NCBI GenBank assembly: GCA_965200875.1
Contig: OZ241456.1
Span: forward strand, 512,001 to 576,000
Reading direction: 5' to 3'
Length of the DNA stretch: 64,000 nucleotides
Source of the DNA: Bdellovibrionales bacterium
GTDB lineage: Bacteria > Bdellovibrionota > Bdellovibrionia > Bdellovibrionales > UBA1609
In this document: positions 12,079 through 49,445 of the stretch, piece by piece
Numbering within the stretch: the first letter of the stretch is position 1
How the letters are laid out: each line of letters begins with the position of its first letter
Made by a program: the position numbers and the translations under genes
The notes under the pieces: model-generated
What the model was told of the DNA's origin: nothing
The model's input: the letters and a program-made list of their open reading frames with translations, nothing else
Databases searched by the model: none

Positions 12079-15000
12079 ATGGATGATGGTAAAAGCCCCA
12101 TAAAAAAAATATTTCAATTTTTAAAAGAGTTCAACAAATTAAAAACCAAACCTCTGCTAAATATAAAATCGTATCCACAGGTGCTATGGTTTTATGAAAT
12201 TCCAAAGGAAGAAGAATGTTATGTAATAACCCGCCATATACAGGCAGAAAACACTCATTACAATAAATGGATAGAAATTAAAAAACCTAAAAGAACATCT
12301 TACCCAGAGCCTCCCGAAGAAATAAAACCTTGGCTAAAAGAAGGTGTATTAAATCAATACACAAAAGAGCCTCAGCTTTTCTCTTATATTATTTCAGAAC
12401 CAGAAAATGATTTTATGGAACATAAAAATTTTGAAGAGGAAGAAGAGAATAAGAAAATCTTGTTAGAAAATTGTCCTGAAGTCAAAAAGTCCTTTGAAGA
12501 TTATATAAGACAAAAATGGTGGCCTTGGTCTCAGGAAGAACAGCGTCTAGAAACTGTTTCAAAAGTGTATAACAGGTTTTATGAAATGTATAAAAAAAAT
12601 AAAAACCAAGGTGAAGTATATCAAATTGTTTTAGGTCTGGGGTTTTTATGCTCTAAAAATCGGCAGGGGAAAGATATTAAACGACATATTGTTACAGCCC
12701 CTGCCACTATTGATTTTCATTCTGCTACGGGAAAAATCACGGTAAAACCTGCCGAACAGGATGTAGAGCTTTCTTTAGAGATGGATATGTTTCGGGAAAG
12801 TGAGAAACCGGATAATTGTGGTTCACTCAACAATCAATTATCAGAACTCAATAATGATTTCTGGAAAACAAATCTATTTTATAACCACTTAAAATCTTGG
12901 CTTAATAGTCATAATTCCAGCGGACAGTTTTACAATAGGTTTGACAAACCTTCTTCGTCTGAATCCTTTACAACATTAACTGTGTCTCCAGCCGTAATCC
13001 TTAGAAAAAGAAATGAAAGAGCTTTTATTAAATTTTATGATTCAGTTATCAAGGATATGGAAAGCAAAGTCAATTTAAGCCCTTGTTTTAAGCATCTTAT
13101 TGACAAACCTTCGACCCATCATCAGAAAGAAATTTCTCCAGAAAGTGAGAAAAAAGTAAAACCCGCTCTTGCTGAAAAACATTATTTTCCTTTACCCACA
13201 AATGCTGAACAGGAAAAAATAATAGATAAAGTCTTATATCATAATCAAGTGGTTGTGCAAGGGCCACCAGGGACAGGTAAAACACATTCCATTGCTAATT
13301 TAATATGTCATTTTTTAGCTAAAGGTAAAAAAATTATTGTAACAAGCCAAACAGATCGCGCTTTGCGGGTGCTGAGAAACAAACTTCCTGAAGAGATAAA
13401 ACTACTTTGTATTGAGATATTGGGAAAAGATCAGCAGTCTTTTCAGGAGTTAAAAGACTCATTTTCAGCCATTAACGAAAAATATCAAAATTGGTCTGAT
13501 AGTAATATAAATAATACTCAAGCTGATATTAATCAATTAGAGGATAAAGATAACCAATTAGAGGCTGAGTTAGCAAAAATTAAAAATCAATTAATGGATC
13601 TAAAACGATATGAAACCAAACAGTATGAAAAACTTTTTGACTTCTATACAGGAACACCGGCGGTTATAGCAAGTCATGTAAAAGAAGAAGAGAAACAATA
13701 CAGCTGGATCAAAGAGTTTTTTGATACAGAAAGTTCTGTTGAATGTCCTGTTTCCAATAAAGAAGCAAAAGAGTTTTTCATAATTATTAAAAATTTAAAA
13801 AATATTGATGATTCTGTTTTAAAAGAATCTGTAGAGTTTTTGGATAATATTTTTACTCCTCAACAGCTGGAGGAAAAAATAAAGGCCGAGACACAAGCCG
13901 GACAAACTATTGAACAACACAAATCTTATGAGAGCAAAGAAAGTACAATTCATTATAATCCATTAAACGACATAGAGCTTAACCAACTGCAAGGTAAACT
14001 AGCCGTTTTAAAATCAAAAGTGGAAAGTCTTTTAAATAAAAATGAGGAATGGATTACGCGGGCTTTAAATGATTGCCTTGCAGATAAAGACAGGGCATGG
14101 AGATATTTATATGACTTCACAAATAAAACTTTAGATGAACATAGGGAGATATTTCAGTCAGCGGAAGAATTGAAAAATATAAAAGCTCCCTCTCACTTAA
14201 ATAGCAATGATGACCTGAAGGTTCAAAACCTTTTAAAAGATTTTTTTGACAAATATCAATCTGACGAACAAGTGCCGTGGAAATGGTATCAGTCAAAACC
14301 AAAAATGGTTCGAGAACTAAAAGAGATAAAAATTAATGATAAGAAAATTTCTTCTTATGAAGATGTTAAAGAATTTCGGAATTATGTAATTGCCAAAAAT
14401 GTTCAGAAAAAATTAAATAATTACTGGAAAAATCAAGGTGTGAAAACAAATCTCCAAAGGCCACCGTTTTTTTCCAAAAATTATCATATTTTAAAAGATC
14501 TGTTAGAACCTGTGGAGGAATGCTTGTCTGCCCATAAGCTAACAGAAGATATAAAAAAGATTTTATCTCCAAAAAATATTTCTTTGCCTCAATGGACAAA
14601 AGACTCTATTAAAGAAATAATGGAGCTGGTGGAATATATACAAGCCCAAAATGTTTTGGAAAAAATAAAACAAGAATTTAAAAAAACTTTTGCTATTCTG
14701 AAACCTTATGAACAGCAAAAAAATCAGTTTGCAAAAGATATAATGGTTGCCTACAAGAGTAGGGACATAACATCTTATAAAGATATTCTTAATAAAACAA
14801 ACGATTTTAAAATCAAGCAAAAACACTTTTCCAGACTATGTGAAATCAGAAAAAAGTTAAACAATAATAATTTTTATAAAAAATTAAATGAAGATATTAA
14901 AAATCCTGTATGGGAAAGCCAGATTATGTCTTTTGAAAAAGCATGGGCTTGGCAAAGGGCCAACCAGTGGTTAAAAGAACAAACTAGCGAAGAGTTTGTT

Positions 15001-16572
15001 AAAAAGCTTAATCAAGAAAAAGAAGAATTGCGAGAGCAACAAAAAAACAACATGGAGAAATTGGTTTCTAAAAAAGCATGGAGTTTTTGTTTATCAAATC
15101 TGAAAGACTCAGAGCTTTCCAGCTTAAAAGGTTGGATACAATCCATAAGCAAAATGGGTAAAGGCACAGGAATCACAGCCGGAAAACACAGGAAAACAGC
15201 AAAAAAACGAATGGAGGAATGCAAAACAGCCATTCCTGCTTGGATTATGCCACTTTACAGAGTGGTGGAAAATATTAATCCAGCTAATGAACCTTTTGAT
15301 ATTGCTATTATTGATGAAGCTAGCCAAACCGGCCCGGATGGTTTTTTGTTAAACCACTTGGCAAAAAAAATTATCGTGGTGGGAGATAAAGAACAAATCA
15401 GTCCTGAAAATCCAGGGATAAAAGATGAGGATGTTGAAATTCACAAGAAAAAATATCTTTCTGATATTAAGTTTTTTGATTATATTGGAAGAGAATACAG
15501 TTATTATGATTACTGTGAAACTTTATTTACAAAAAGTCATGTTCAATTAAGAGAACATTTTAGATGTATGCCGGAAATTATCCAATTTTCCAATAGTATT
15601 TCTTACTCCGGTACTCCTCTGATTCCTCTGCGTCAATATGGTAGTTCAAGGCTTACCCCTCTTAAAACAACTTATGTTAGAGACGCCATAAGCCAAGTTG
15701 GCAGTGGCAAAGATCCACAAAACGAAAAAGAAGCAAAAGCTATTGTTGCTCAAATTAAAAAGTGTATCAGTGATCCGGCTTATGATGGAAAAACCTTTGG
15801 AGTAATTGTCTTACAAGGCAAAGCTCAAATACAAGTGATTGAATCCGCGCTTTCAGAAATAGACAAAAAAGACCTAGAAGAAAGAAGGATACATGTTGGC
15901 AATGCCTATAATTTTCAGGGAGACGAAAGAGATGTAATTTTTTTAAGCATGGCCGTTGCCAAAGACCGGAGTATTTCAGCCCTTACTAGGGAGACTTATA
16001 AGAAAATGTATAATGTAGCTGGCAGTCGGGCAAAAGATCAAATGTGGCTTTTTCATTCTGTGGAGCGAAATGATCTTTCATCGGAAGATTATCGCCGAAA
16101 ATTACTTTCCCATTGTAAGAGTGATTCTAAACAAATAACTGCTTGGCCACAAAATGAGTTGGAAAAATTATATAGAAAAATTAAAGAAACACAAAATAAA
16201 AAACCAGAAAATGCTCCTGAACTTTTTAGTCGCCCTAATGAAAATTTTGGTAGTTGGTTTGAAGCAAGGGTGTTTCATAAAATAGCTCTTAAAGGTTACC
16301 AAGTGATTCCTCAATTTAAGGTATCTCACTATCGAATAGATATGGTTATTGTTGGTTCTAAAGGGAGATTGGCTTTAGAGTGTGACGGAGATTATTGGCA
16401 CTCAGGGGAAAAAAAAGAAATGGAAGACCAAGACAGACAAGGGCAACTGGAAAGATGTGGCTGGACATTTTGGCGATTAAGAGAAAGTGTGTTTAACAGA
16501 GATGAAGAATCAGCTTTAAAAAGCTTATGGGAGCGACTGGATAAAATGAAAATATATCCTTTAAGGACTTAA
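12079..16572 (+). CDS. SF1 (DNA2/UPF1-like) helicase with a C-terminal Vsr/DUF559-like endonuclease
   Basis: QGPPGTGKT, IIDEASQ, VVGDKEQ, EHFRC, FQGDERD; C-terminal FEARV...RIDMV...ALECDGDYWH...LERCGWTFWR. Confidence 0.9.
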   Translation: MDDGKSPIKKIFQFLKEFNKLKTKPLLNIKSYPQVLWFYEIPKEEECYVITRHIQAENTHYNKWIEIKKPKRTSYPEPPEEIKPWLKEGVLNQYTKEPQLFSYIISEPENDFMEHKNFEEEEENKKILLENCPEVKKSFEDYIRQKWWPWSQEEQRLETVSKVYNRFYEMYKKNKNQGEVYQIVLGLGFLCSKNRQGKDIKRHIVTAPATIDFHSATGKITVKPAEQDVELSLEMDMFRESEKPDNCGSLNNQLSELNNDFWKTNLFYNHLKSWLNSHNSSGQFYNRFDKPSSSESFTTLTVSPAVILRKRNERAFIKFYDSVIKDMESKVNLSPCFKHLIDKPSTHHQKEISPESEKKVKPALAEKHYFPLPTNAEQEKIIDKVLYHNQVVVQGPPGTGKTHSIANLICHFLAKGKKIIVTSQTDRALRVLRNKLPEEIKLLCIEILGKDQQSFQELKDSFSAINEKYQNWSDSNINNTQADINQLEDKDNQLEAELAKIKNQLMDLKRYETKQYEKLFDFYTGTPAVIASHVKEEEKQYSWIKEFFDTESSVECPVSNKEAKEFFIIIKNLKNIDDSVLKESVEFLDNIFTPQQLEEKIKAETQAGQTIEQHKSYESKESTIHYNPLNDIELNQLQGKLAVLKSKVESLLNKNEEWITRALNDCLADKDRAWRYLYDFTNKTLDEHREIFQSAEELKNIKAPSHLNSNDDLKVQNLLKDFFDKYQSDEQVPWKWYQSKPKMVRELKEIKINDKKISSYEDVKEFRNYVIAKNVQKKLNNYWKNQGVKTNLQRPPFFSKNYHILKDLLEPVEECLSAHKLTEDIKKILSPKNISLPQWTKDSIKEIMELVEYIQAQNVLEKIKQEFKKTFAILKPYEQQKNQFAKDIMVAYKSRDITSYKDILNKTNDFKIKQKHFSRLCEIRKKLNNNNFYKKLNEDIKNPVWESQIMSFEKAWAWQRANQWLKEQTSEEFVKKLNQEKEELREQQKNNMEKLVSKKAWSFCLSNLKDSELSSLKGWIQSISKMGKGTGITAGKHRKTAKKRMEECKTAIPAWIMPLYRVVENINPANEPFDIAIIDEASQTGPDGFLLNHLAKKIIVVGDKEQISPENPGIKDEDVEIHKKKYLSDIKFFDYIGREYSYYDYCETLFTKSHVQLREHFRCMPEIIQFSNSISYSGTPLIPLRQYGSSRLTPLKTTYVRDAISQVGSGKDPQNEKEAKAIVAQIKKCISDPAYDGKTFGVIVLQGKAQIQVIESALSEIDKKDLEERRIHVGNAYNFQGDERDVIFLSMAVAKDRSISALTRETYKKMYNVAGSRAKDQMWLFHSVERNDLSSEDYRRKLLSHCKSDSKQITAWPQNELEKLYRKIKETQNKKPENAPELFSRPNENFGSWFEARVFHKIALKGYQVIPQFKVSHYRIDMVIVGSKGRLALECDGDYWHSGEKKEMEDQDRQGQLERCGWTFWRLRESVFNRDEESALKSLWERLDKMKIYPLRT

Positions 16573-16668
16573 CCAACCTGTTGATTTTCAGGATATAGGT
16601 TGTTATATGTTAAAGTAGTTCAGCAGAATAGGTTAGTAAATGGACTTAAATGGATAAGGTGAAACATT

Positions 16669-18381
16669 ATGCCCATTTTGGAATTTAAAGGCAAAGACAT
16701 TATAGATTCCTATCATTTAGGGGTTGCCTTTTGCCCGATCCATATTGATAAAACAAAAAGTAAACTGTCCGTTCAAAACAGAAAAACACCTTCTTTGGAT
16801 GATAATTTGATTATTCATGGGGATAACCTTTTTGCTCTCAAAGCCCTTATACCAAAATATGCTGGCAAAATAAAATGTGTTTATATCGATCCGCCTTACA
16901 ATACAGGAAAAGAAACATGGGTATTTAATGATAATGTAAATCATCCCCTTATGCGGGAGTGGCTAAAAAAAGAAGTGGGCTTAGATGACATGGAAAGGCA
17001 TGACAAATGGCTTTGTATGATGTGGCCCAGACTTTGTTTATTAAAAGATCTGTTAAGTGAAGATGGAGTGTTGATATGCGCTATAGATCATAATGAACGA
17101 GAGCATTTAGGTATGATATTAAAGGAGATTTTTCAAGATCAGGAAATTGTGTGTGTAACGATTGTGCATAATCCCAGAGGAATCCAAGGTGATCATTTTT
17201 CCTATACCCATGAATACGCTTATTTTGTTTTGCCAGATAAAAAAAGTGTGATTGGAAAAAGAAAATTCATAAAAAACAAGGATATAAGCAATTTTAGAAA
17301 TTGGGGAGGAGAATCGTTAAGGGGAGATGCAAAAAATTGTTTTTACCCTATTCTTGTTCGAAGTGGTGCTATTGTTGGTTTTGGTGAGGTGTTGGAGGAA
17401 GGGAAACATCCTGAGGGTCGTGTGGTGAAAAGAGGAGATGGTTCTTATGAGATATGGCCCATAGACAAAAGCGGAGTGGAAAGAAAGTGGCGATATGCCC
17501 GTCAAAGTGTGGAGTCCATAAAACATCTGCTCACCCTCAAGCCAGCCAAAAACCAGGAAAATAATTTTGAAGTGGAAATAGGAAAGGATTTTGGTTCTTA
17601 TAAAACTGTTTGGACAGGTAGTAAGTATGATGCTAATGAATACGGCACAAAGCTCTTAAAAACTATTTTGCCGAATTGCCCTTTTAATTTTCCAAAGTCT
17701 TTTTATACAGTGAAGGATTGTCTGCAAGCTGTGTGCCGTGATGATAAAAATGCCATTATTTTGGATTGCTTTGCTGGATCAGGTACAACGGCTCATGCTG
17801 TTTTGGATATGAACAAAGAGGACGGAGGCCAGCGCAAGTTTATTTTAGTTCAATGTGAAGAGTATAATAAAAAAACCGGGAAACAAATTAATATCACAAA
17901 TGAAATTACAGCAGAGCGTGTTCGTAAAGTTATGGAAGGTTATAATGGCAAAAAAGGCTTTGATGATTCTTTTACCTATTGTGCTCTTGGCAAACCATTA
18001 AGTGAAGAAAATATGTTGAAAGGAAAATCTCTTCCAGATTACAACACTCTTGCTCATTATGTGTTTTGGACAGCTACTGGAAAAACTTTAAACCAAACTG
18101 GCCAGCGAGTTGCGAGGGAAAACAAAAATTTTTATATAGGAAAATCAGACAGCAATCAAGCTTTTTTCTTAATTTACAAGCCCGATATAAAGTTTTTAAG
18201 AAGCAATGAGTCTGCTTTAAATTGGGATCGTAAGCAGGAGATTCAAAAAATTATGCTTCAGCAGGGTTGTAAAAAAGCAGTTGTATTCGCATCTGCTTGT
18301 TTTTACGATATAAGAGAGCTATCTTCAGACGGCATTGTTTTTTGTCAATTGCCTTTTGCGATTTATGCCAGAACAATATAA
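16669..18381 (+). CDS. mod: Type III R-M methyltransferase Mod
   Basis: IIHGDNL, YIDPPYNTG (motif IV), FPK, LDCFAGSGTT (motif I); beta-class order. Confidence 0.9.
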   Translation: MPILEFKGKDIIDSYHLGVAFCPIHIDKTKSKLSVQNRKTPSLDDNLIIHGDNLFALKALIPKYAGKIKCVYIDPPYNTGKETWVFNDNVNHPLMREWLKKEVGLDDMERHDKWLCMMWPRLCLLKDLLSEDGVLICAIDHNEREHLGMILKEIFQDQEIVCVTIVHNPRGIQGDHFSYTHEYAYFVLPDKKSVIGKRKFIKNKDISNFRNWGGESLRGDAKNCFYPILVRSGAIVGFGEVLEEGKHPEGRVVKRGDGSYEIWPIDKSGVERKWRYARQSVESIKHLLTLKPAKNQENNFEVEIGKDFGSYKTVWTGSKYDANEYGTKLLKTILPNCPFNFPKSFYTVKDCLQAVCRDDKNAIILDCFAGSGTTAHAVLDMNKEDGGQRKFILVQCEEYNKKTGKQINITNEITAERVRKVMEGYNGKKGFDDSFTYCALGKPLSEENMLKGKSLPDYNTLAHYVFWTATGKTLNQTGQRVARENKNFYIGKSDSNQAFFLIYKPDIKFLRSNESALNWDRKQEIQKIMLQQGCKKAVVFASACFYDIRELSSDGIVFCQLPFAIYARTI

Positions 18382-18394
18382 GAAGGTTATTTTA

Positions 18395-21010
18395 ATGCAG
18401 TTAAAAGAATTTCAAGATTTATGTTTAAAAAAATTGGATTATTATCTTCAGGTTTTAAAGTCAGAATACCTAGAAGAAAAAGAAGTGATAAAATTTTTAC
18501 GGAGTAAAGGGCAAGAGAGACAAATAAAGGAATATTCAGAAAAGACCTGGAAAAAATTGGAGTTTGAAGGAAAACTTCCACACTTTAAAAACACACTTGG
18601 GAAAATACAACCCCTTCCCTATCTCAATAAAAAAGATGGCTTAGCTCACCCCATTCCCAACATACTTTTAAAAGTCCCTACTGGTGGAGGGAAAACCTTG
18701 ATAGCTGTTTTCGCAGTGGAAAGAATAAACTTTGATTATTTTCAAAAAACCACCGGTCTTATTTTATGGATTGTTCCCACAGATGTCATATACAGACAAA
18801 CCTTTTTAAACTTTAAAAACAAATCCCACCCCTATAGACAAATATTGGAAAGAGCAGGAGCTGGAAGAGTTAAAATTTTGGAATGGAGAAAAAATAAAAC
18901 CAATTCTTTTTCTGTACGGGATTTAAAGGAAAACCTTTGTGTGATGTTGTTGATGTTACAATCAGCAAACCGGGAGACCAAGGAATCTTTGCGGGTATTT
19001 AAAGATTCTGGAAAATTTATTGATTTTTTTCCAAAAGCGAGAGATGGGAAAGCCAATGAAAAGCTGATTTCCTATATGGGAAATTTAGACACATATATCG
19101 ATAAAAACCCACTAGGAGGTGGGACGGGTGCTTTTGTTAAACATAGCTTGGGAAATGCCATAAGGCTTGCCCAGCCGATTGTTATTATGGATGAAGGGCA
19201 CAGAGCTTATTCAGATCTGGCCAGAAAAACTTTGTCTGATTTAAACCCTCGATTTATCCTAGAGCTTTCCGCCACTCCCAATATGAAATCTCATAAAAGC
19301 AATGTGTTGGTTAGCATTTCCGGTGTAAAACTAAAAGAGGAAGAAATGATTAAACTTCCTATAAATATTACAAACACAGGAAAAGGGGATTGGAAAAAAA
19401 CCTTATGCCAAGCTTATGATAAATTGCAAGAGTTACAAAAGTTGAGTAAAATAAACTATAAGAAAACCAAAAAATATATTCGCCCCATTATGCTTGTTCA
19501 AGTGGAAAGAACTGGGAAAGATCAAATAGACACAAACTTTGTTCATTCTGAAGATGTTAAGAATTTTCTTATCAGTCGTTTAAAAGTCAGGGAAAGAGAA
19601 ATCAAAATCAAGGTGGCTGAAAAAGATGAGCTAAAGGATGAAAGCCTGTTGAGCCACACTTCCCCAGTGCGATTTATTATCACCAAGCAAGCTTTGCAGG
19701 AAGGTTGGGATTGCCCCTTCGCTTATGTTTTGGCCGTTTTATCCAATAGTCGCTCCAAACAAGCTATGACTCAATTAATAGGTAGGATATTAAGACAGCC
19801 TTATGCTCAAAAAGCGGAAATGGAATCTTTAAACGAAAGCTATGTTTTTTGTTATAACAGGTTGGTTCAGGAAGTAGTCAATGATATTAAAAAAGGTTTG
19901 CAAAAAGAGGGTATGGCCGATCTGACTCACTATATAACCACAAAAGAAACAGCCCTGAAAAAGGTAAAAGTGAACAGAAGACCAACCTTTAAAGATACTA
20001 AAATTTTTCTTCCCAGAGTGTTATGCAAAACTCAGAACAATGTTTGGAGAAATATCATTTATGAAGAGGATATTCTCAAAAATATAGATTTTTCAAAGAT
20101 ATCTTATTCTGAAAAAGAGCGTCTTACCCCTGAAAACATTGACTCTTTACAGGTTGATTCTATTCAAGTGGATATGTCAGATCACGCAAACCAATTTACC
20201 TTGCCTTATGCGACAAAAACTCGATGGGAAAATCAAGGTATGAAAATGGATTATCCATTTATGATAAAAAGACTCAGCCTTTTTATTCCCAACCCTTGGG
20301 AGGCGGTTAGGATTTTGGATGAAACTATAGACAGTTTAAAAGTTAGAAAAATATCAGATGAACAACTTTACTTAAATAGAAATTGGATACTTCGGGCTAT
20401 GGAGCAGGATATAGAAAAGCAAATAGATCGCCTTTCAGAAAAATTGTTTATAAAAAAACTTAAAGCCGGTGACTTGTGTTTTAAAATCTTTAAAAAGAAA
20501 ATTGATATAAATTGGGAGATGAAATCGGATATGGATTTTGTGGTTTCCAGAAGCGATAAAATTTTAAGACGGAGGGATGAAAGCGATTTTCAGCTTTCGT
20601 TGTTTGATAAAACCTATCAATCTCATTACAATGAATTGGAAAAACAAGTGGCCTGGTATTTGGATGAACAATCGGCGGTTAAATGGTGGCACAGGATAGC
20701 AGTAAAGCAAGGTTATCATTTACAAGGTTGGCAGAAGAGAAAAATATACCCTGATTTTCTAGCTTTTATCAGTTCTGAAAACAAAGTAAAAAAACTTTCT
20801 GTTTTGGAGGCAAAAGGTGATCATCTGAAAGGCAATGATGATACAAATTACAAAAAAAAACTCTTTAAAATTTTGGAAAAGCATGCCACAAATGAGATTA
20901 TGAAAGTAGGGGATATGGAAGTTGTTTCAGAGGCAGAACAAAAAATGGTATTTCAAATTCTTATGGAAAACAGATGGCGTGAGGATTTACAGGAAGTTAT
21001 TGAAAAATAA
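18395..21010 (+). CDS. res: Type III R-M restriction subunit Res
   Basis: VPTGGGKT, DEGH, LSATP, LQEGWDCP, QLIGRILR, YPDF...LEAKG nuclease motif; ATG 18395 follows the mod stop. Confidence 0.9.
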   Translation: MQLKEFQDLCLKKLDYYLQVLKSEYLEEKEVIKFLRSKGQERQIKEYSEKTWKKLEFEGKLPHFKNTLGKIQPLPYLNKKDGLAHPIPNILLKVPTGGGKTLIAVFAVERINFDYFQKTTGLILWIVPTDVIYRQTFLNFKNKSHPYRQILERAGAGRVKILEWRKNKTNSFSVRDLKENLCVMLLMLQSANRETKESLRVFKDSGKFIDFFPKARDGKANEKLISYMGNLDTYIDKNPLGGGTGAFVKHSLGNAIRLAQPIVIMDEGHRAYSDLARKTLSDLNPRFILELSATPNMKSHKSNVLVSISGVKLKEEEMIKLPINITNTGKGDWKKTLCQAYDKLQELQKLSKINYKKTKKYIRPIMLVQVERTGKDQIDTNFVHSEDVKNFLISRLKVREREIKIKVAEKDELKDESLLSHTSPVRFIITKQALQEGWDCPFAYVLAVLSNSRSKQAMTQLIGRILRQPYAQKAEMESLNESYVFCYNRLVQEVVNDIKKGLQKEGMADLTHYITTKETALKKVKVNRRPTFKDTKIFLPRVLCKTQNNVWRNIIYEEDILKNIDFSKISYSEKERLTPENIDSLQVDSIQVDMSDHANQFTLPYATKTRWENQGMKMDYPFMIKRLSLFIPNPWEAVRILDETIDSLKVRKISDEQLYLNRNWILRAMEQDIEKQIDRLSEKLFIKKLKAGDLCFKIFKKKIDINWEMKSDMDFVVSRSDKILRRRDESDFQLSLFDKTYQSHYNELEKQVAWYLDEQSAVKWWHRIAVKQGYHLQGWQKRKIYPDFLAFISSENKVKKLSVLEAKGDHLKGNDDTNYKKKLFKILEKHATNEIMKVGDMEVVSEAEQKMVFQILMENRWREDLQEVIEK

Positions 21011-42956: not shown

Positions 42957-45932
42957 CTACAAGGCTGGGTAGTTCTCTCTTCCCGGCCATTTAAAGTTTT
43001 CATAATTTCTTTCTGGATAACTAGGGAATTGTTTAAGAGAAGAGTCCTCTTTTCTTTTTTTGGCATATTCTCCTTGTGTTCTGATACCTTTTTTCTCAAC
43101 AACAACTTGTTGAAATACCTCTAATGGTGGACGATTTACCTTTGTGACACGACTTCTCCCTGGCCATTTAAAGCCCGGATAATTTTTTTCTGGATGGTTT
43201 GGGAATCGTTTAAGTTCTTCATCTTTTTTTCTTTGGTTTTGATATTCCTGTTGCGTTCCAATACCCTTTTGTTCAACCACAATTTGCTGAAACACCTCTA
43301 CTGGTGGACGGTTTACCTTTGTAATACGACTTCTCCCCGGCCATTTAAAGCCTTGATAACTTCTTTTTGGAACACTGGGGAATCGTTGAAGCTCTTCGTC
43401 TTTTTTCCTTTGGTTGTCATATTCCCGTTGTGTTCTGATATTCTTTTGCTCAACAACTTGTTGAAACACCTCTACTGGTGGACGGTTATCCTTTGTGACT
43501 ATATATTTCATCTTGTATTTCATCTCTGGCCATATAAAGCCTTCATAGTTGTTTTCTGGTTCGCTGGGGAAACGTTTAAGTTCTTCGTCTTTTTTCCTTT
43601 TTTTGGCATATTCTCCTTGTGTTCTGATGTCCTTTTGTTCAACCACAATTTGCTGAAACACCTCTACTGGTGGAAGGTTATCCTTTGTGATAACCTTTCT
43701 CTTCCCCGGCCATATAAAGTCTTCATAGTTGTTTTCTGGTTCGCTGGGGAAACGTTTAAGTTCTTCGTCTTTTTTCCTTTTTTTGGCATATTCTCCTTGT
43801 GTTCTGATGACCTTTTGTTCAACAACAATTTGCTGAAATACCTCTAATGGTGGACGATTCCCCTTTGTGACACGATTTCTCCCTGGCCATTTAAAGCCTT
43901 CATAGCTTCTTTCTGGGTGGCTGGGGAATCGTTTAAGTCTTTCATCTTCTTTTCTTTTATTTTGATATTCCCATTGTGTTCTTATATCCTGTTGCTCAAC
44001 AACAACTTGTTGAAACACCTCCAATGGTGGAAGCTTATTCTTTGTGACAGGGGAGACACTCCAAAACTTCTGGACAGTTTCTTCCAATATCTTTCTGAAT
44101 TTTGCTAAATCCTCTCTTTCAAAAATATGTCTGCTTGACGAGTTTGGAGAGGCTTTTACTCCTGTGCTTTCTGTACCTAATTCTTCGTTCACATTATCCC
44201 GTATCGTCCGACTGAAAGACACTGTCTTTATAGTATCCAATATGTTCAATAATTCCCTAGCAACTTGTTCATCACGATAATCTATCAGCAATATAATATC
44301 TGATGAAAACTTCCCAGCTTTCAGTCGCAAAACTCTTCCTATTCTCTGTAACATATTCTTTATAGGGATGTTTGCATTTAAATCGATGTAAGCTGAAAGA
44401 TGAGGCAAATCAATTCCCTCATCCAAACTCCTGACTGCCACAATATAATGTGTCTTTCCTTTTTCATGGGACCTCTCTATAACAACCCTTTTCTCCTCTG
44501 CGGAGCGTTCTTGGTGATAGGAATCAAATTGTATCTCAGGAAAAACATTGCTTAAAAACTCCGTTAAACGTTCTGCCTCACGAATCGTGGCTGTCACAAT
44601 AAATCCTTTTTCATTGGATCTTAAAACTGGGTATAGAATCTGTGCTAATTTTTCATAAAAATCCGGGTTTAAAATTTTACGATTGTTTTTATACTCTACT
44701 GTAAATAGCTCTCCTTCCTTTCCATTGGTTTTGAACAGGGTGTCCGCAATAAAGTACAAATTATCAAAAGGCGTTAAATCTCCTCTTTCTATTCCTTCTG
44801 ATAATTGCCTTAAAATACCTTCCGAAGAATGGCTTTCAAATAAATTACCGGATTTAGTGAGATAAGACCAATGTGTCTTTTCAAATAAACTTCTTAAGCT
44901 CACTTCATGGTGTATCGGGGTGGCCGTAGCTCCATACAGAAAAGCCTCACTTTGTTCTTGCAGGTTCAACAGGACATCTTTTGTGATCTGTGCTCCCAGA
45001 TGATGAGCCTCATCTATAAAAATGGAAGAAAGACGTAAAGAGAGTTGTTTGTAATGTTCTGTATTAGGCTCTTTAAGTATTTTCTTTAAGCTTTGAGTGG
45101 TCATTACAAAAACAGTGGGGCCGTTATGTCTGCTCGCTTGCGCGAGAGTTTTCGCGAAACTATCTCCTGTTTGACTGTTCCAGTTGATAACCTGAATATC
45201 CATAGCATTATCCTGTTTGGTGGATTCAGCTATTTCCGTTTTAATAGCCTGTGAGAGTTGCTCCACAATATGCACTCGATTAACCGTGGCTATGGCTATG
45301 TTTTTTTCTTTGGAGGAGTGTCTTATCTGTTCTATGAGTGCTTTAGTGAGAACCAGCGTTTTCCCGACACCGGTGGGGCATATATGGAGGAAGCTTTTTG
45401 CACCATCATGCAGGGCTTGTTGGTATGCAGAGAGAGCAAGAGACTGTACAGGTTTCATCATGATTTTTCCTTCAGAAAAGTAAGGGTGAAGCTCATGTCC
45501 TACAAGCCAGTATCTGAGTTTGTGGCCCAAAGAAGGATTTTGAAAAAAATCAATAGAGGGAATTTTAAGGGTTTTAGATTTACCGTCTGTGTGAAACTCA
45601 GGGGAGGAGATGCGACTATCTATTTTTATCTCAAAGTTTATGGAGGTTTTGGAGACAAGCTTTAAACATCCAGTGCCACAGGTTTTTAATTCCATATTTT
45701 CCAAAGCTTCCGGCTTTAATATCCCAGTGATAGAGGTTTCAACGAGGGAATGAAATACATTTCCAGAGTCTCTTTGGTTGCTTACAGGCGAGGAGTTTTT
45801 TCCCTGTTCAGCAGGGTTATCTGTTTTTTCATGCTCAGGGAAGGCATCTTTGCAATTTGCCAACAAAGAAAGCGGGAAACAGAAGCACATAATGAACCAA
45901 AAAGATATTATTTTTAAGTGTATAAAATTCAT
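42957..45932 (-). CDS. SF2 DEAH (ResIII-like) helicase with an N-terminal signal-like peptide and C-terminal ~60-aa repeats
   Basis: CPTGVGKT, IDEAHH, GATATP, LDEGIDLP, QRIGRVLR. Confidence 0.88.
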   Translation of the reverse strand: MNFIHLKIISFWFIMCFCFPLSLLANCKDAFPEHEKTDNPAEQGKNSSPVSNQRDSGNVFHSLVETSITGILKPEALENMELKTCGTGCLKLVSKTSINFEIKIDSRISSPEFHTDGKSKTLKIPSIDFFQNPSLGHKLRYWLVGHELHPYFSEGKIMMKPVQSLALSAYQQALHDGAKSFLHICPTGVGKTLVLTKALIEQIRHSSKEKNIAIATVNRVHIVEQLSQAIKTEIAESTKQDNAMDIQVINWNSQTGDSFAKTLAQASRHNGPTVFVMTTQSLKKILKEPNTEHYKQLSLRLSSIFIDEAHHLGAQITKDVLLNLQEQSEAFLYGATATPIHHEVSLRSLFEKTHWSYLTKSGNLFESHSSEGILRQLSEGIERGDLTPFDNLYFIADTLFKTNGKEGELFTVEYKNNRKILNPDFYEKLAQILYPVLRSNEKGFIVTATIREAERLTEFLSNVFPEIQFDSYHQERSAEEKRVVIERSHEKGKTHYIVAVRSLDEGIDLPHLSAYIDLNANIPIKNMLQRIGRVLRLKAGKFSSDIILLIDYRDEQVARELLNILDTIKTVSFSRTIRDNVNEELGTESTGVKASPNSSSRHIFEREDLAKFRKILEETVQKFWSVSPVTKNKLPPLEVFQQVVVEQQDIRTQWEYQNKRKEDERLKRFPSHPERSYEGFKWPGRNRVTKGNRPPLEVFQQIVVEQKVIRTQGEYAKKRKKDEELKRFPSEPENNYEDFIWPGKRKVITKDNLPPVEVFQQIVVEQKDIRTQGEYAKKRKKDEELKRFPSEPENNYEGFIWPEMKYKMKYIVTKDNRPPVEVFQQVVEQKNIRTQREYDNQRKKDEELQRFPSVPKRSYQGFKWPGRSRITKVNRPPVEVFQQIVVEQKGIGTQQEYQNQRKKDEELKRFPNHPEKNYPGFKWPGRSRVTKVNRPPLEVFQQVVVEKKGIRTQGEYAKKRKEDSSLKQFPSYPERNYENFKWPGRENYPAL
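42980..44050 (-). repeat. Six intragenic tandem repeats of 174-192 bp
   Basis: PP(L/V)EVFQQ anchors near 44018, 43841, 43661, 43469, 43295, 43118. Confidence 0.95.
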
Positions 45933-46616: not shown

Positions 46617-48785
46617 ATGAGAAATAAACACAGTAGAAAGAATACAGGGCAGTTGGCCATTTTTATTATTCTGCTTTTTCCTGTGTTGTTTACTCTGTTC
46701 GCCATGTCTTTAAATATCACTTTAGTAGTGCATGATAAAATCAATCTTCAAAATTCTGTTGATATCGCTGCCTACTACGGTGCTATGAAACAGGCTGAAA
46801 TGTTAAACGCCATTGCTCATATAAACTATCAAATCCGCCAGTCTTGGAAACTTCTGGTATGGAGATATAGGGTTTTGGGTAGCGTAAGTCTTACGCATCG
46901 TCCAGAGTGGGGAAATCCCGCACTCGCTGTTGAGAGGGAACATTGGCCACAATCTCTGAAAAATCTACAGATAGGACCTTATTTTTTCTGTGTTGGACAT
47001 AAAGATTGGGGTTGGTTCATAAAAAAGGGTGGTGGTTCTGTAAACATTCCAAGGACTAGAGAAGATAAACCAACTGATATGCTTTGTAATGAAATGGGGG
47101 GGCGTATCAACGCACCTAGCGTGCCAAGTTTCAGTGGAAGTTTAGGAAGTCTCTCTGGTGTCCTAAGGAATATAAGCCGTGCCGGGAATACGATCAGGGA
47201 GCAATTAGAAGGCAAATGCAAGCTTTATGGGTATAATTCATGGTTGCTTGGTGCTTTGTCTTTTTCTCATTTTCGCGCGGACCAAACCGCTAGAAAACAA
47301 ATGATATATTACCTTGCAAAGGCTATGTCTGGCAAGCTTGCAGGGTTTCCTCATAAACATGGCACAGATTTAAATGGCGATTCCATAGCTTCTGGAGTTA
47401 AAAAAACTTTTGAAAGAAACTTAACTTATATAAATGGTAAAGCTTTTAAAGAAACACCAGACAACCCTTTTATACAATTTAATTCCCTAGAAAGAGTGTT
47501 GTCACCTTCAGATTGGTTAGAGGACACACCTTTTTGGGCTTTGGGGCTTTTCGCTGATATTCATCCAGTAGGGAAAGCTTGTGAAAAAAACTTAAAATTT
47601 TTGCGTCAAGGATCATCAGTCCTTAGTGATAAGAGTTTAAAAAGTATACTTTTAGGAGAGCAAGATATGAACTGGCCAGGATGTGTCACAGGAAATTCCC
47701 TATGTTCCCCTTCTGCCGGTCTCCATAAAAAAAGAAATTTTCTAATTTTTTACTCTGTAAAAGCTGAACTAAAATATAAATGTCAGATTTTTTTACCCTG
47801 GGGATGTGGTGATGGGGGTAATGTGTATTTAAAAGCAAAAGCTTTCGCAAAGCCTTTTGGGGGAACTATAGGTCCTATAGGACCAAGATCAGCATCATTG
47901 CGTGGAGAAGATCCTTTACTACCTAATCCTCATGGTGAAAGCCCAAGTGGAGATCTTGTGAAACTTGACAAAAAATTCACCCCCAACTATTCCCGCTATC
48001 CAGGAGATAAATTTGGTTTGAGATCATCTTATGTACATTACTACTGGGCTGAGCACATACAACGCTCTCCACATGACACAAAAAATATAAAATTTTACTT
48101 AAAAGGTAATCATGGTGATGACAGAGACCCTTTAGCTAGGGGTATAATCCCACCGGGAGTAAAAAGTTTACTTGCCCGGAAATGGGAGATAATGGCGGTT
48201 GCTCCAGATATTTTTGATGTAACTTATTTCACTATTTTACCTTATTACATGCAAACATACTTTCCAAAAATCAAAGTTCTTTTGAAGAATGAACCCGTCA
48301 ATTTAAGAGGGGGGTTTGGTTCATATAAAGCCGGCAACGACTTTCAATGGAAGTATGGTATTTTAGGCCAGCACAAAACTATAACCGGGCAACCACCAGA
48401 GCTAAGAATCGATGACTTATGGTTTTTAAGTCATTATTCAGCCCCGCGTCCGCGCCCACCTTGGTATAAAATAGCAAAACTTGAACAACTACTCACTGGC
48501 TGGAATCCCCCTAAAGAAAAATATGTATCTAACAGTAATGAGCAATATAACATTAACCGCTCTAAATTTAGTTTATGTGGTAAAACCCTTCGTGAGGATG
48601 ATCAATGGGTACATAATTTTGGAATTAATATGTCTCCCGGAGTAATAAAAGGTAAAATCGCCACAGGCTGTATTTACGGCGGACGAACGGGTTATTCTGT
48701 GAAAATGATTTCTGCTGAATTTATCAAAGGTTTTAGTGTTAGAGGTGTAAGTGATCTTAGAAACCCATTCCCGGCTTGGTATTAA
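46617..48785 (+). CDS. TadG-related pilus assembly protein
   Basis: GQLAIF prepilin-like site, hydrophobic helix, KINLQNSVDIAAYYGA Tad motif. Confidence 0.85.
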   Translation: MRNKHSRKNTGQLAIFIILLFPVLFTLFAMSLNITLVVHDKINLQNSVDIAAYYGAMKQAEMLNAIAHINYQIRQSWKLLVWRYRVLGSVSLTHRPEWGNPALAVEREHWPQSLKNLQIGPYFFCVGHKDWGWFIKKGGGSVNIPRTREDKPTDMLCNEMGGRINAPSVPSFSGSLGSLSGVLRNISRAGNTIREQLEGKCKLYGYNSWLLGALSFSHFRADQTARKQMIYYLAKAMSGKLAGFPHKHGTDLNGDSIASGVKKTFERNLTYINGKAFKETPDNPFIQFNSLERVLSPSDWLEDTPFWALGLFADIHPVGKACEKNLKFLRQGSSVLSDKSLKSILLGEQDMNWPGCVTGNSLCSPSAGLHKKRNFLIFYSVKAELKYKCQIFLPWGCGDGGNVYLKAKAFAKPFGGTIGPIGPRSASLRGEDPLLPNPHGESPSGDLVKLDKKFTPNYSRYPGDKFGLRSSYVHYYWAEHIQRSPHDTKNIKFYLKGNHGDDRDPLARGIIPPGVKSLLARKWEIMAVAPDIFDVTYFTILPYYMQTYFPKIKVLLKNEPVNLRGGFGSYKAGNDFQWKYGILGQHKTITGQPPELRIDDLWFLSHYSAPRPRPPWYKIAKLEQLLTGWNPPKEKYVSNSNEQYNINRSKFSLCGKTLREDDQWVHNFGINMSPGVIKGKIATGCIYGGRTGYSVKMISAEFIKGFSVRGVSDLRNPFPAWY

Positions 48786-48839
48786 CTCATTCCACCGGAA
48801 AGTTTTAAAAATAAGGAGTAAGATATTAAAAAAAAGAAA

Positions 48840-49445
48840 TTGTTATTTTCCAGCAAGGGAAGTTTGACAGTTCAGTTTGTGCTTGGATTTGCTCTTGTGT
48901 GGGGTTTTATAGCACTTTTTGCGGTCATGTGTTTTACCTTGGCAGTAAGTAGCATCACACAGTATATAACTTTTGCTTCCGCCCACGCTTTATTTTTGGG
49001 AGACGGAGATTTAACAGCACAAAAAGACGCGGCTTTTGAAACCTATAAGGATTTGAAGAACAAATTTCGTAATCAAGAAGGTGCAGGTATTTTCAGCCCC
49101 GATGTAATTGATATATACCAAGAACAAGAACTACTAGATATGGGACTGGGACTTAATACGGCTTTTCAAGTTACCAAACCTAACTTGTTTTATGGAGCTT
49201 GGACAAAGTTTGTCCCCAAAGTGTTGAAGATAAACACTTTTTTTGGAGATTCAGGAAAAGATGATAATTTTTTTAAGACCACCATTGGTTCTTATCTTGG
49301 GCGTGAACCGACTATGGAAGAATGTGATCTTTTTTTTGATCAAGAAAGGTCGAAAAAGATATATGAATATCACCAAAACAACTGGCATCATACAGCACCC
49401 CTTCCCCGAATGGTAGGTATTAAGGTTTTTGATAATGGTTGTTAA
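48840..49445 (+). CDS. TadE-like pseudopilin
   Basis: KGSLTVQF prepilin-like N-terminus, QYITFASA, SYLGREP, DNGC end. Confidence 0.65.
   Translation: MLFSSKGSLTVQFVLGFALVWGFIALFAVMCFTLAVSSITQYITFASAHALFLGDGDLTAQKDAAFETYKDLKNKFRNQEGAGIFSPDVIDIYQEQELLDMGLGLNTAFQVTKPNLFYGAWTKFVPKVLKINTFFGDSGKDDNFFKTTIGSYLGREPTMEECDLFFDQERSKKIYEYHQNNWHHTAPLPRMVGIKVFDNGC

Follow-up and report, generated by a model that had tools for sequence, protein, structure and literature searches.

A predicted exported superfamily 2 helicase with a variable repeat tail and a cysteine tag, a candidate DNA-targeting effector of Bdellovibrionota

Introduction

Why would a bacterium equip an ATP-dependent helicase with a signal for export, when the periplasm holds no ATP? 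The question is raised by a gene of a Bdellovibrionales bacterium (assembly GCA_965200875.1, contig OZ241456.1), located at positions 42957..45932 on the minus strand of the window analysed here, that is, the whole stretch of 64,000 nucleotides, whose numbering we follow. Open reading frame calling and Pfam searches delimited a coding sequence for a 991-aa, exported-type superfamily 2 (SF2) helicase with a repeat tail. An original prediction, made by reading the sequence, had described a Sec-like signal, intact helicase motifs and six basic repeats, and had proposed an effector acting in prey or host cells. The reading that we favour, with a probability of roughly 0.5, is an exported, ATP-dependent, DNA-targeting effector that would reach the cytoplasm of bacterial prey in folded form. 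Below, G000 denotes the source genome of the window and C1 its contig, while P- and L-codes designate family proteins and loci.

Results

An intact helicase motor

Independent contig pieces from run X1, possibly the sample from which the genome itself came, matched the helicase part and the start region of the gene without a single base change. Three Pfam models (ResIII, DEAD and Helicase_C) scored above their cut-offs in the 991-aa protein, and the SF2 motifs were located at Q163, residues 186-192 (PTGVGKT), 307-310 (DEAH), 336-338 (TAT) and R530/R533/R536. The helicase core (ResIII/Helicase_C), as delimited by Pfam, alignment and Foldseek, spans residues 157-578 (44199..45464, minus strand), with Walker A at 45357-45377 and Walker B at 45003-45014, both on the minus strand. 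These motifs are near-invariant among 40 aligned homologues; Q163, G190, K191, D307 and E308 are retained in 46-49 of 49 diverse members, and the near-invariance of the motor residues holds for the close set and the distant set alike. Two RecA-like domains, Walker A, DExH, motif III and motif VI were all recognised, and we assign the protein to the SF2 helicases with intact motor motifs, in agreement with the original prediction. No nuclease or methylase domain was found in it by Pfam.

In the AlphaFold model (mean predicted local distance difference test, pLDDT, 80.7), the leader is followed by a disordered stretch, a small folded N-domain, the two RecA domains and six helical units that stand apart from one another. 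The N-domain (residues 54-150; 45483..45773, minus strand) has a pLDDT mostly above 90 and contains a conserved C85-x3-C89 pair, with C85 kept in 29 and C89 in 30 of the 40 aligned homologues. It had no Pfam match in a direct search, and an Atlas hint to XPB_DRD (0.79) was discarded as below the useful range. Among solved structures, RadD gave the top Foldseek matches in the Protein Data Bank (PDB). The protein falls outside the curated helicase families RadD, XPB, type III Res and Dnd/PbeA, with all scores below cut-offs: the best NCBIfam score was 59.5 bits against a cut-off of 850, and the RadD model gave 21 against 720. PADLOC matches were limited to the RecA2 part.

A family-wide export leader

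Residues 1-25 (45858..45932, minus strand) form a predicted Sec signal peptide of the signal peptidase I type (Sec/SPI), with a basic n-region, a hydrophobic core (KD-11 mean 2.46) and an L-L-A end, followed by N-C-K-D-A-F. Signal calls were made with our own hydrophobicity and charge heuristics, under which the segment qualifies as Sec/SPI (small residues at -3/-1; here L-L-A at -3 to -1). We draw on general background for the lipobox pattern, for the positive-inside rule and for the repeat length of transcription activator-like effectors (TALE), to which we refer below.

We counted leaders in 174 family proteins of at least 550 aa, pooled from the close and distant sets and hence not independent; 25 in which Walker A could not be placed were dropped. 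A hydrophobic N-terminal leader was present in 124 of the remaining 149 members, down to about 27% identity, against none of the eight other helicase-like proteins of the source genome. The n-side is positive in 110 of the 124 leaders and exceeds the c-side in 98, an asymmetry that indicates an N-in/C-out orientation, as in Sec signals. The first internal methionine after the leader, M80, is not conserved, and the family alignment contains no conserved downstream start. Conservation across the family thus supports the export leader and the annotated start as genuine, and the helicase would very probably cross the inner membrane. A true start downstream of the hydrophobic segment, the objection that the original prediction had raised against itself, finds no backing in the alignment. 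That prediction had also pointed to paralogues as a check on the signal. No paralogue was found in the source genome, where the protein-to-genome scan returned one weak locus and a single lone repeat occurs elsewhere.

Two peculiarities were observed in P0041-P0053 and P0019, whose leaders are extended by short tandem peptide repeats ahead of the hydrophobic core and whose helicase cores carry Asn/Ser-rich inserts.

A cysteine tag at either end of exported-type proteins

The leader is followed by a short motif, CKDAF, at residues 27-31 (45840..45854, minus strand), an instance of a C-x-x-x-F/L tag recognised from the family logo and from its terminal enrichment in the genome; the original prediction mentioned neither this tag nor the tail swapping described below. 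By rule, the tag follows the leader in 84 of the 124 members with one, and lies in the last 20 residues instead in 19. In the close set, it is N-terminal only in 31 proteins, C-terminal only in 15, absent from both ends in 7 and at both in 1 (a false match inside the signal). The C-terminal tags form one clade and a single change suffices on the tree, which implies one relocation, in which one terminus kept the tag and the other lost it. A Fisher test on N- versus C-terminal tags gave p 2.6e-7, which we do not take to indicate repeated switching, as the quick tree needs one change (SH-aLRT 94). A lipoprotein (signal peptidase II) reading was likewise rejected: the lipobox [LVI][ASTVIG][GAS]C occurs in 0 of 124 leaders and the tag is also found at C-termini.

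The tag extends beyond the helicases. In the source genome, on which the motif was partly defined, CxxAF has a density per 10,000 positions of 2.0 near N-termini, 3.6 near C-termini and 0.24 in protein interiors, corresponding to 14 N-terminal and 9 C-terminal occurrences against expectations of 1.7 and 0.6 derived from interiors. Eight of the nine proteins with C-terminal CxxAF have a leader. Across three genomes, the strict tag was found at the N-terminus of 19 of 498 signal-like against 1 of 929 cytoplasmic-like proteins, and at the C-terminus of 11 of 498 against 3 of 929, never at both ends of one protein. Samples of 400 kb from two congeners gave 8 N-terminal and 4 C-terminal tags among 137 signal-like proteins, and 1 and 2 among 288 cytoplasmic-like ones, again never at both ends; two of the congener N-terminal matches look like ordinary lipoprotein cysteines. 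In a sample of another genus, no enrichment of the strict tag was observed, and a looser form occurred.

Altogether, the tag marks about 20 exported-type proteins of unrelated families in the source genome, at either end. They include five ankyrin proteins, Sel1 and TPR proteins, one alpha/beta hydrolase, three proteins with helical tandem repeats, two pentapeptide proteins and an RNase III. The latter (G000:C1:754767-756098, minus strand; L006) combines RNase III, a dsRNA-binding domain and a second RNase III-like part with a signal peptide and a CSEGF tag, and stands, by its domains, as a second cytoplasm-type enzyme bearing export marks. The helical-repeat proteins (G000:C1:442530-444410, 911013-911849 and 1367455-1369224; L005, L019) form a tagged exported family with repeats of about 39 aa that vary in few positions; they had no credible Pfam match and are mTERF-like by eye only. 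Both pentapeptide-repeat proteins (G000:C1:1326549-1327154 and 1508519-1509106) end in CxxAF, while the other 37 among those listed mostly have a different end cap. At L023:7-849 and L054:8647-10080 (G013), a tagged exported protein with a different repeat type adjoins a helicase family gene. RelE-like and ADP-ribosyltransferase-like labels, given by eye to two tagged proteins and two tails, were unconfirmed by Pfam (best ParE E 0.3) and were not used.

Six variable repeats related to INT_rpt

The tail contains six INT_rpt-related repeats (42978..44030, minus strand), identified by Tandem Repeats Finder (period 177, 6.0 copies, score 1054), profile and alignment. They start at window positions 44030, 43853, 43673, 43481, 43307 and 43130, that is, at residues 635, 694, 754, 818, 876 and 935, and measure about 59 aa (range 57-64 aa), each with a net charge of +2 to +7. 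Units 2 and 3 are identical at 143 of 150 bases (95%), while the other 14 pairs share 73-83%. As high identity is confined to this pair, the recent expansion claimed in the original prediction amounts to only one duplication.

The proportion of nonsynonymous differences (pN) is below that of synonymous ones (pS) in all 15 unit pairs. The variable sites cluster in two patches, one where helix 2 begins and the other about the short final helix. Nine of 50 unit columns have at least three states, and unit positions 20 and 38 vary, as had been noticed at the outset. Six variable columns, picked from other loci, had a pN above that of the framework in each of 11 arrays, and double or more in 10; in the present array, pN is 0.31 in these columns against 0.12 in the framework, approaching pS, all these figures being uncorrected and the pairs not independent. 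The conservation of the variable columns across 11 arrays fits modular recognition, and relaxed surface positions as well.

The units gave no direct match to the Pfam INT_rpt model (PF14882) at E<=10. Built from the units of the helicase and of its nearest relative, a profile had collected 212 units from 38 of 69 proteins at convergence; its first round recovered the repeats of P0013 and P0014, both of which exceed the INT_rpt cut-off (66.4 and 42.8 bits). Through these relatives, we regard the repeats as homologous to INT_rpt, so that the likeness to integrase repeats first proposed stands as a transitive relationship and fails as a direct one. An ESM Atlas hint to INT_rpt (0.84) served as a lead only. 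The INT_rpt-type repeats of a relative match plasmid-borne integrases of the VPA1269 family.

In a predicted model of three units (pLDDT 80.5, pTM 0.41), these appear as separate small helical domains with no fixed mutual orientation. A fold search with three repeats returned no Foldseek match in the PDB and a best VIA Z of 3.2, which shows neither a new fold nor a difference; a fold match to giant-virus helicases was weak (E 0.054). Rab32 and Gp28, retrieved in a PDB sequence search with the repeat profile, were weak matches and taken as chance. The six variable repeats likely grip DNA, judging from their charge and context.

A genus-wide lipoprotein of the source genome (G000:C1:1132477-1133667, minus strand; L017:2478-3668) carries one helicase repeat in a variable linker. 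This repeat shares 75% DNA identity with unit 1 and is present in 0 of 7 fetched orthologues. We take a repeat unit to have been copied between genes.

Exchangeable tails

The repeats are one of several tails in the family, which comprise INT_rpt-like repeats, HA repeats (seen in 3 of the 49 and 2 of the 42 members scanned), winged-helix arrays and sigma-70 regions (4 of 49); many tails have no Pfam match. By these domain assignments, relatives keep the export signal and swap the tail, the tails being interchangeable and DNA-associated. Exported helicases fused to sigma-70 regions 2-4 were found in P0063, P0065, P0067, P0089 and P0106, and at L114:3029-7462 and L118:3607-6867. The sigma-70 tails point to bacterial promoters and polymerase, and such fusions could act on the RNA polymerase or promoters of prey.

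A patchy, stand-alone family

The source genome measures 1.87 Mb, with 37% GC and 94.5% completeness. A homologue search retrieved 68 relatives, three labelled Bdellovibrionales in their source records, and an exhaustive search with the helicase core yielded 890 representatives at E<=0.001, of which 125 reached E<=1e-30; the best 150 contained no cytoplasmic sister clade. Within the genus, 8 of 14 further genomes encode the helicase, often more than once; of 10 genomes from other genera of the taxonomic family, 2 do. No RNA data set was listed as containing the gene. In a draw of 200 genomes across the phylum, with four candidates scored per genome, 22 were positive, belonging to eight families and measuring 2.2-5.1 Mb. 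These proteins constitute an uncharacterised Bdellovibrionota helicase family that is not confined to reduced sponge associates. Plasmid matches to the helicase were only 22-26% identical. Pieces of a close strain were detected in a sponge metagenome (run X3) at 94-99% identity.

Neighbours differ at all 12 fetched loci, where no conserved partner gene was found, which indicates a stand-alone gene. In the window, a Tad minor-pilin-like gene pair (46617-49445) diverges from the helicase, and its second gene has a near-copy at G000:C1:198846-199430, beside a Tad secretin cluster; a link to the neighbouring Tad gene was rejected, as no neighbour is shared across the 12 loci. The window also contains a defence-like cluster (12079-21010) with a helicase-nuclease fusion (MTES_1575), a DNA methylase and a ResIII protein. 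Elsewhere, at L110 (G007:C223), L111 and L121, two or three helicase paralogues stand in tandem, each with 4-14 repeats, and some of the copies are truncated or frameshifted.

Secretion systems and prey context

A folded protein with a Sec leader needs a second export step, which a type II secretion system (T2SS), a type IVa system or a Tad system could supply. Judged by gene content, the source genome encodes all three, Tad in two clusters, with four secretins, seven traffic ATPases and a gsp-like cluster (gene names assigned by eye). Markers of the type III secretion system (T3SS)/flagellum, the type IV (T4SS) and type VI (T6SS) secretion systems and the contractile sheath (PF00771, PF03135, PF05943, PF17482) were not found in this 94.5% complete genome, and the helicase was not classed as a T3SS, T4SS or T6SS effector.

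The available text of a review gives, as the current model for B. exovorus, an epibiotic junction that opens the prey cytoplasm, and describes Tad-dependent killing in Myxococcus (PMC12428579). The route of predator enzymes into the prey cytoplasm is treated there, and in the portion seen of PMC12622784, as an open question; the latter and PMC12419801, likewise seen in part, provide background only. Early predation by B. bacteriovorus induces exported endonucleases and a helicase, according to the available sections of PMC2797640. Among sponge Bdellovibrionota, reduced forms with numerous ankyrins are on record, the prey of which is given as unknown in the text available from PMC9944714, and the helicase may thus have a host target.

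Discussion

What the exported helicase may do

The conserved motor residues and the ATP-free periplasm together imply that the workplace of the helicase must hold ATP, hence a cytoplasm. Weight is added to an effector reading by the cysteine tag shared with other exported proteins and by the DNA-acting tails, and we consider it probable that the helicase acts in another cell. The sigma-70 tails, and the finding of the helicase in many taxonomic families with large genomes, speak for bacterial prey, which fits better than a eukaryotic host and to which, as the target, we give about even odds. In such a scheme, the protein would be exported by Sec and its signal cleaved after A25; the C-x-x-x-F tag, functional at either end, would sort the cargo to an outer route, most likely the T2SS or a Tad pilus, and entry into the prey cytoplasm would take place via the predator-prey junction. 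Each repeat would read DNA through its two variable patches at helix starts, the array loading the helicase on DNA, and the motor, driven by prey ATP, would translocate or unwind, stripping proteins or blocking transcription and replication, with the chromosome opened to co-exported nucleases. The prey-or-host effector of the original prediction is thus the best-supported reading, with bacteria preferred; its delivery is a step that we infer.

Several observations weigh against this reading. A similar hydrophobicity bar is cleared by 16 of 120 long P-loop proteins of the source genome, and 25 of the 149 members lack a leader as called, although many of these start inside the N-domain and look like 5'-truncated calls at the protein level. 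There is no link between the tag and any secretion machine, its move from the N- to the C-terminus is one event, and the tagged cohort contains many ankyrin, Sel1 and TPR proteins, which also typify effectors directed at eukaryotes. The repeat matched no solved structure, and its putative DNA binding is argued from context and charge; pN/pS at the variable columns is about 1 (0.84 here), as relaxed constraint would likewise give, and one unit is tolerated in a lipoprotein linker. The patchy presence of the gene in congeners (8/14) indicates that it is not essential to the lifestyle.

In a variant of this reading, the same exported effector is aimed at the nucleus or an organelle of a eukaryote, a sponge or protist host, in the manner of a TALE that carries a motor. 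The ankyrin, Sel1 and TPR content of the tagged cohort, the close-strain pieces in the sponge metagenome, the reduced 1.87-Mb genome without a flagellar export gate and the K/R runs of the units, which could serve as nuclear signals, are in line with it, as are the ankyrin-rich sponge Bdellovibrionota reported in the available text of PMC9944714. We consider it unlikely on balance, given that family and tag are present in large genomes of eight families, that sigma-70 tails suit bacterial targets and that T3SS, T4SS and T6SS markers were not found in the 94.5% complete genome. If the protein instead stayed in the periplasm or at the surface as a nucleic-acid binder capturing prey DNA, the tag would be an anchor or a disulfide link rather than a delivery signal: a single free cysteine near a terminus suits tethering, the C85-x3-C89 pair suits an oxidising compartment, and one repeat does occur in a lipoprotein. 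However, conservation of Walker A, Walker B and motif VI throughout the family would be difficult to account for without ATP, no extracellular use is evident for sigma-70 and winged-helix tails, and the tag is not a lipobox (0/124), which makes this role quite unlikely.

ATP would be available to a cytoplasmic defence or repair helicase, held by an uncleaved inner-membrane anchor or starting downstream of the hydrophobic stretch. The closest models (PbeA, Dnd restriction and RadD), partial and far below cut-offs, and a patchy distribution typical of defence genes are in keeping with this possibility, but the charge asymmetry predicts N-in/C-out, the internal start is not conserved, the tag is common to plainly exported proteins, no partner gene is conserved at the 12 fetched loci and the protein has no nuclease or methylase domain; we judge it improbable. 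A bolder reading, which we hold less likely than not, is that Bdellovibrionota possess an undescribed Sec-dependent route by which folded enzymes that act in the cytoplasm are brought into other cells, addressed by a five-residue cysteine tag at either end of the cargo, with the helicase family as its modular DNA-targeting payload and the INT_rpt units as a new programmable code for DNA recognition.

Comparison with known systems

The motor is closest to the RadD/XPB/ResIII SF2 helicases (PDB 6jde, 8h5y; PF04851 and PF00271), with which it shares the RecA-like pair, Q motif, Walker A, DEAH, TAT and motif VI. Identity to these is only 17-18% and NCBIfam scores fall far below cut-offs; moreover, those known are cytoplasmic proteins with no leader, tag or repeat tail. 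For the tail, the comparison is with INT_rpt (PF14882) of VPA1269/GmtZ integrases (for GmtZ, the accessible part of bioRxiv 10.1101/2023.03.28.534373) and the HA domain (PF03457): relatives' repeats pass the INT_rpt cut-off, whereas the units of the exported helicase miss the Pfam model and are located on an exported protein. No solved structure or tested function of INT_rpt is given in the available text of PMC8078820 and bioRxiv 10.1101/2023.03.28.534373.

TALE/STAR proteins, as described in the accessible part of PMC11417379, resemble the predicted exported helicase in being secreted and in having a tandem array that varies at few positions per unit. Sequence and fold are unrelated: a 34-aa solenoid contrasts with the 59-aa beads-on-a-string units and two variable patches found here, and a type III signal with a Sec leader and an ATP motor as effector domain. 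The units (57-64 aa against 33-35), with a different helix pattern and no Pfam match, do not belong to that class. PF14882 is unnamed in the main text of this DNA-binding repeat screen, whose supplements may bear on the matter. Within the same phylum, Bd1244 and Bd1934 of B. bacteriovorus are exported enzymes thought to attack prey DNA, and the helicase Bd1370 is up-regulated in predation and not called exported (PMC2797640, available sections); unlike the ATP-dependent helicase reported here, the former two are ATP-independent nucleases. 'Helicase' and 'signal peptide' do not occur in the main text, as available, of a comparative genomics study of the phylum (PMC11656739), and, among the papers listed in literature searches that did not extend to subscription papers or bioRxiv supplements, none described the helicase family or the tag.

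An ATP-dependent enzyme with a Sec leader would be a built-in reporter, functional only once in a cytoplasm, and the movable tag a five-residue handle for existing B. bacteriovorus secretion assays. The arrays offer an uncharacterised repeat, with its six variable columns, in hundreds of natural versions, a test bed for a new modular DNA-binding code. The parts are known and the arrangement is undescribed: a DNA motor bearing an export signal, with targeting tails that can be exchanged and a tag that does not depend on position.

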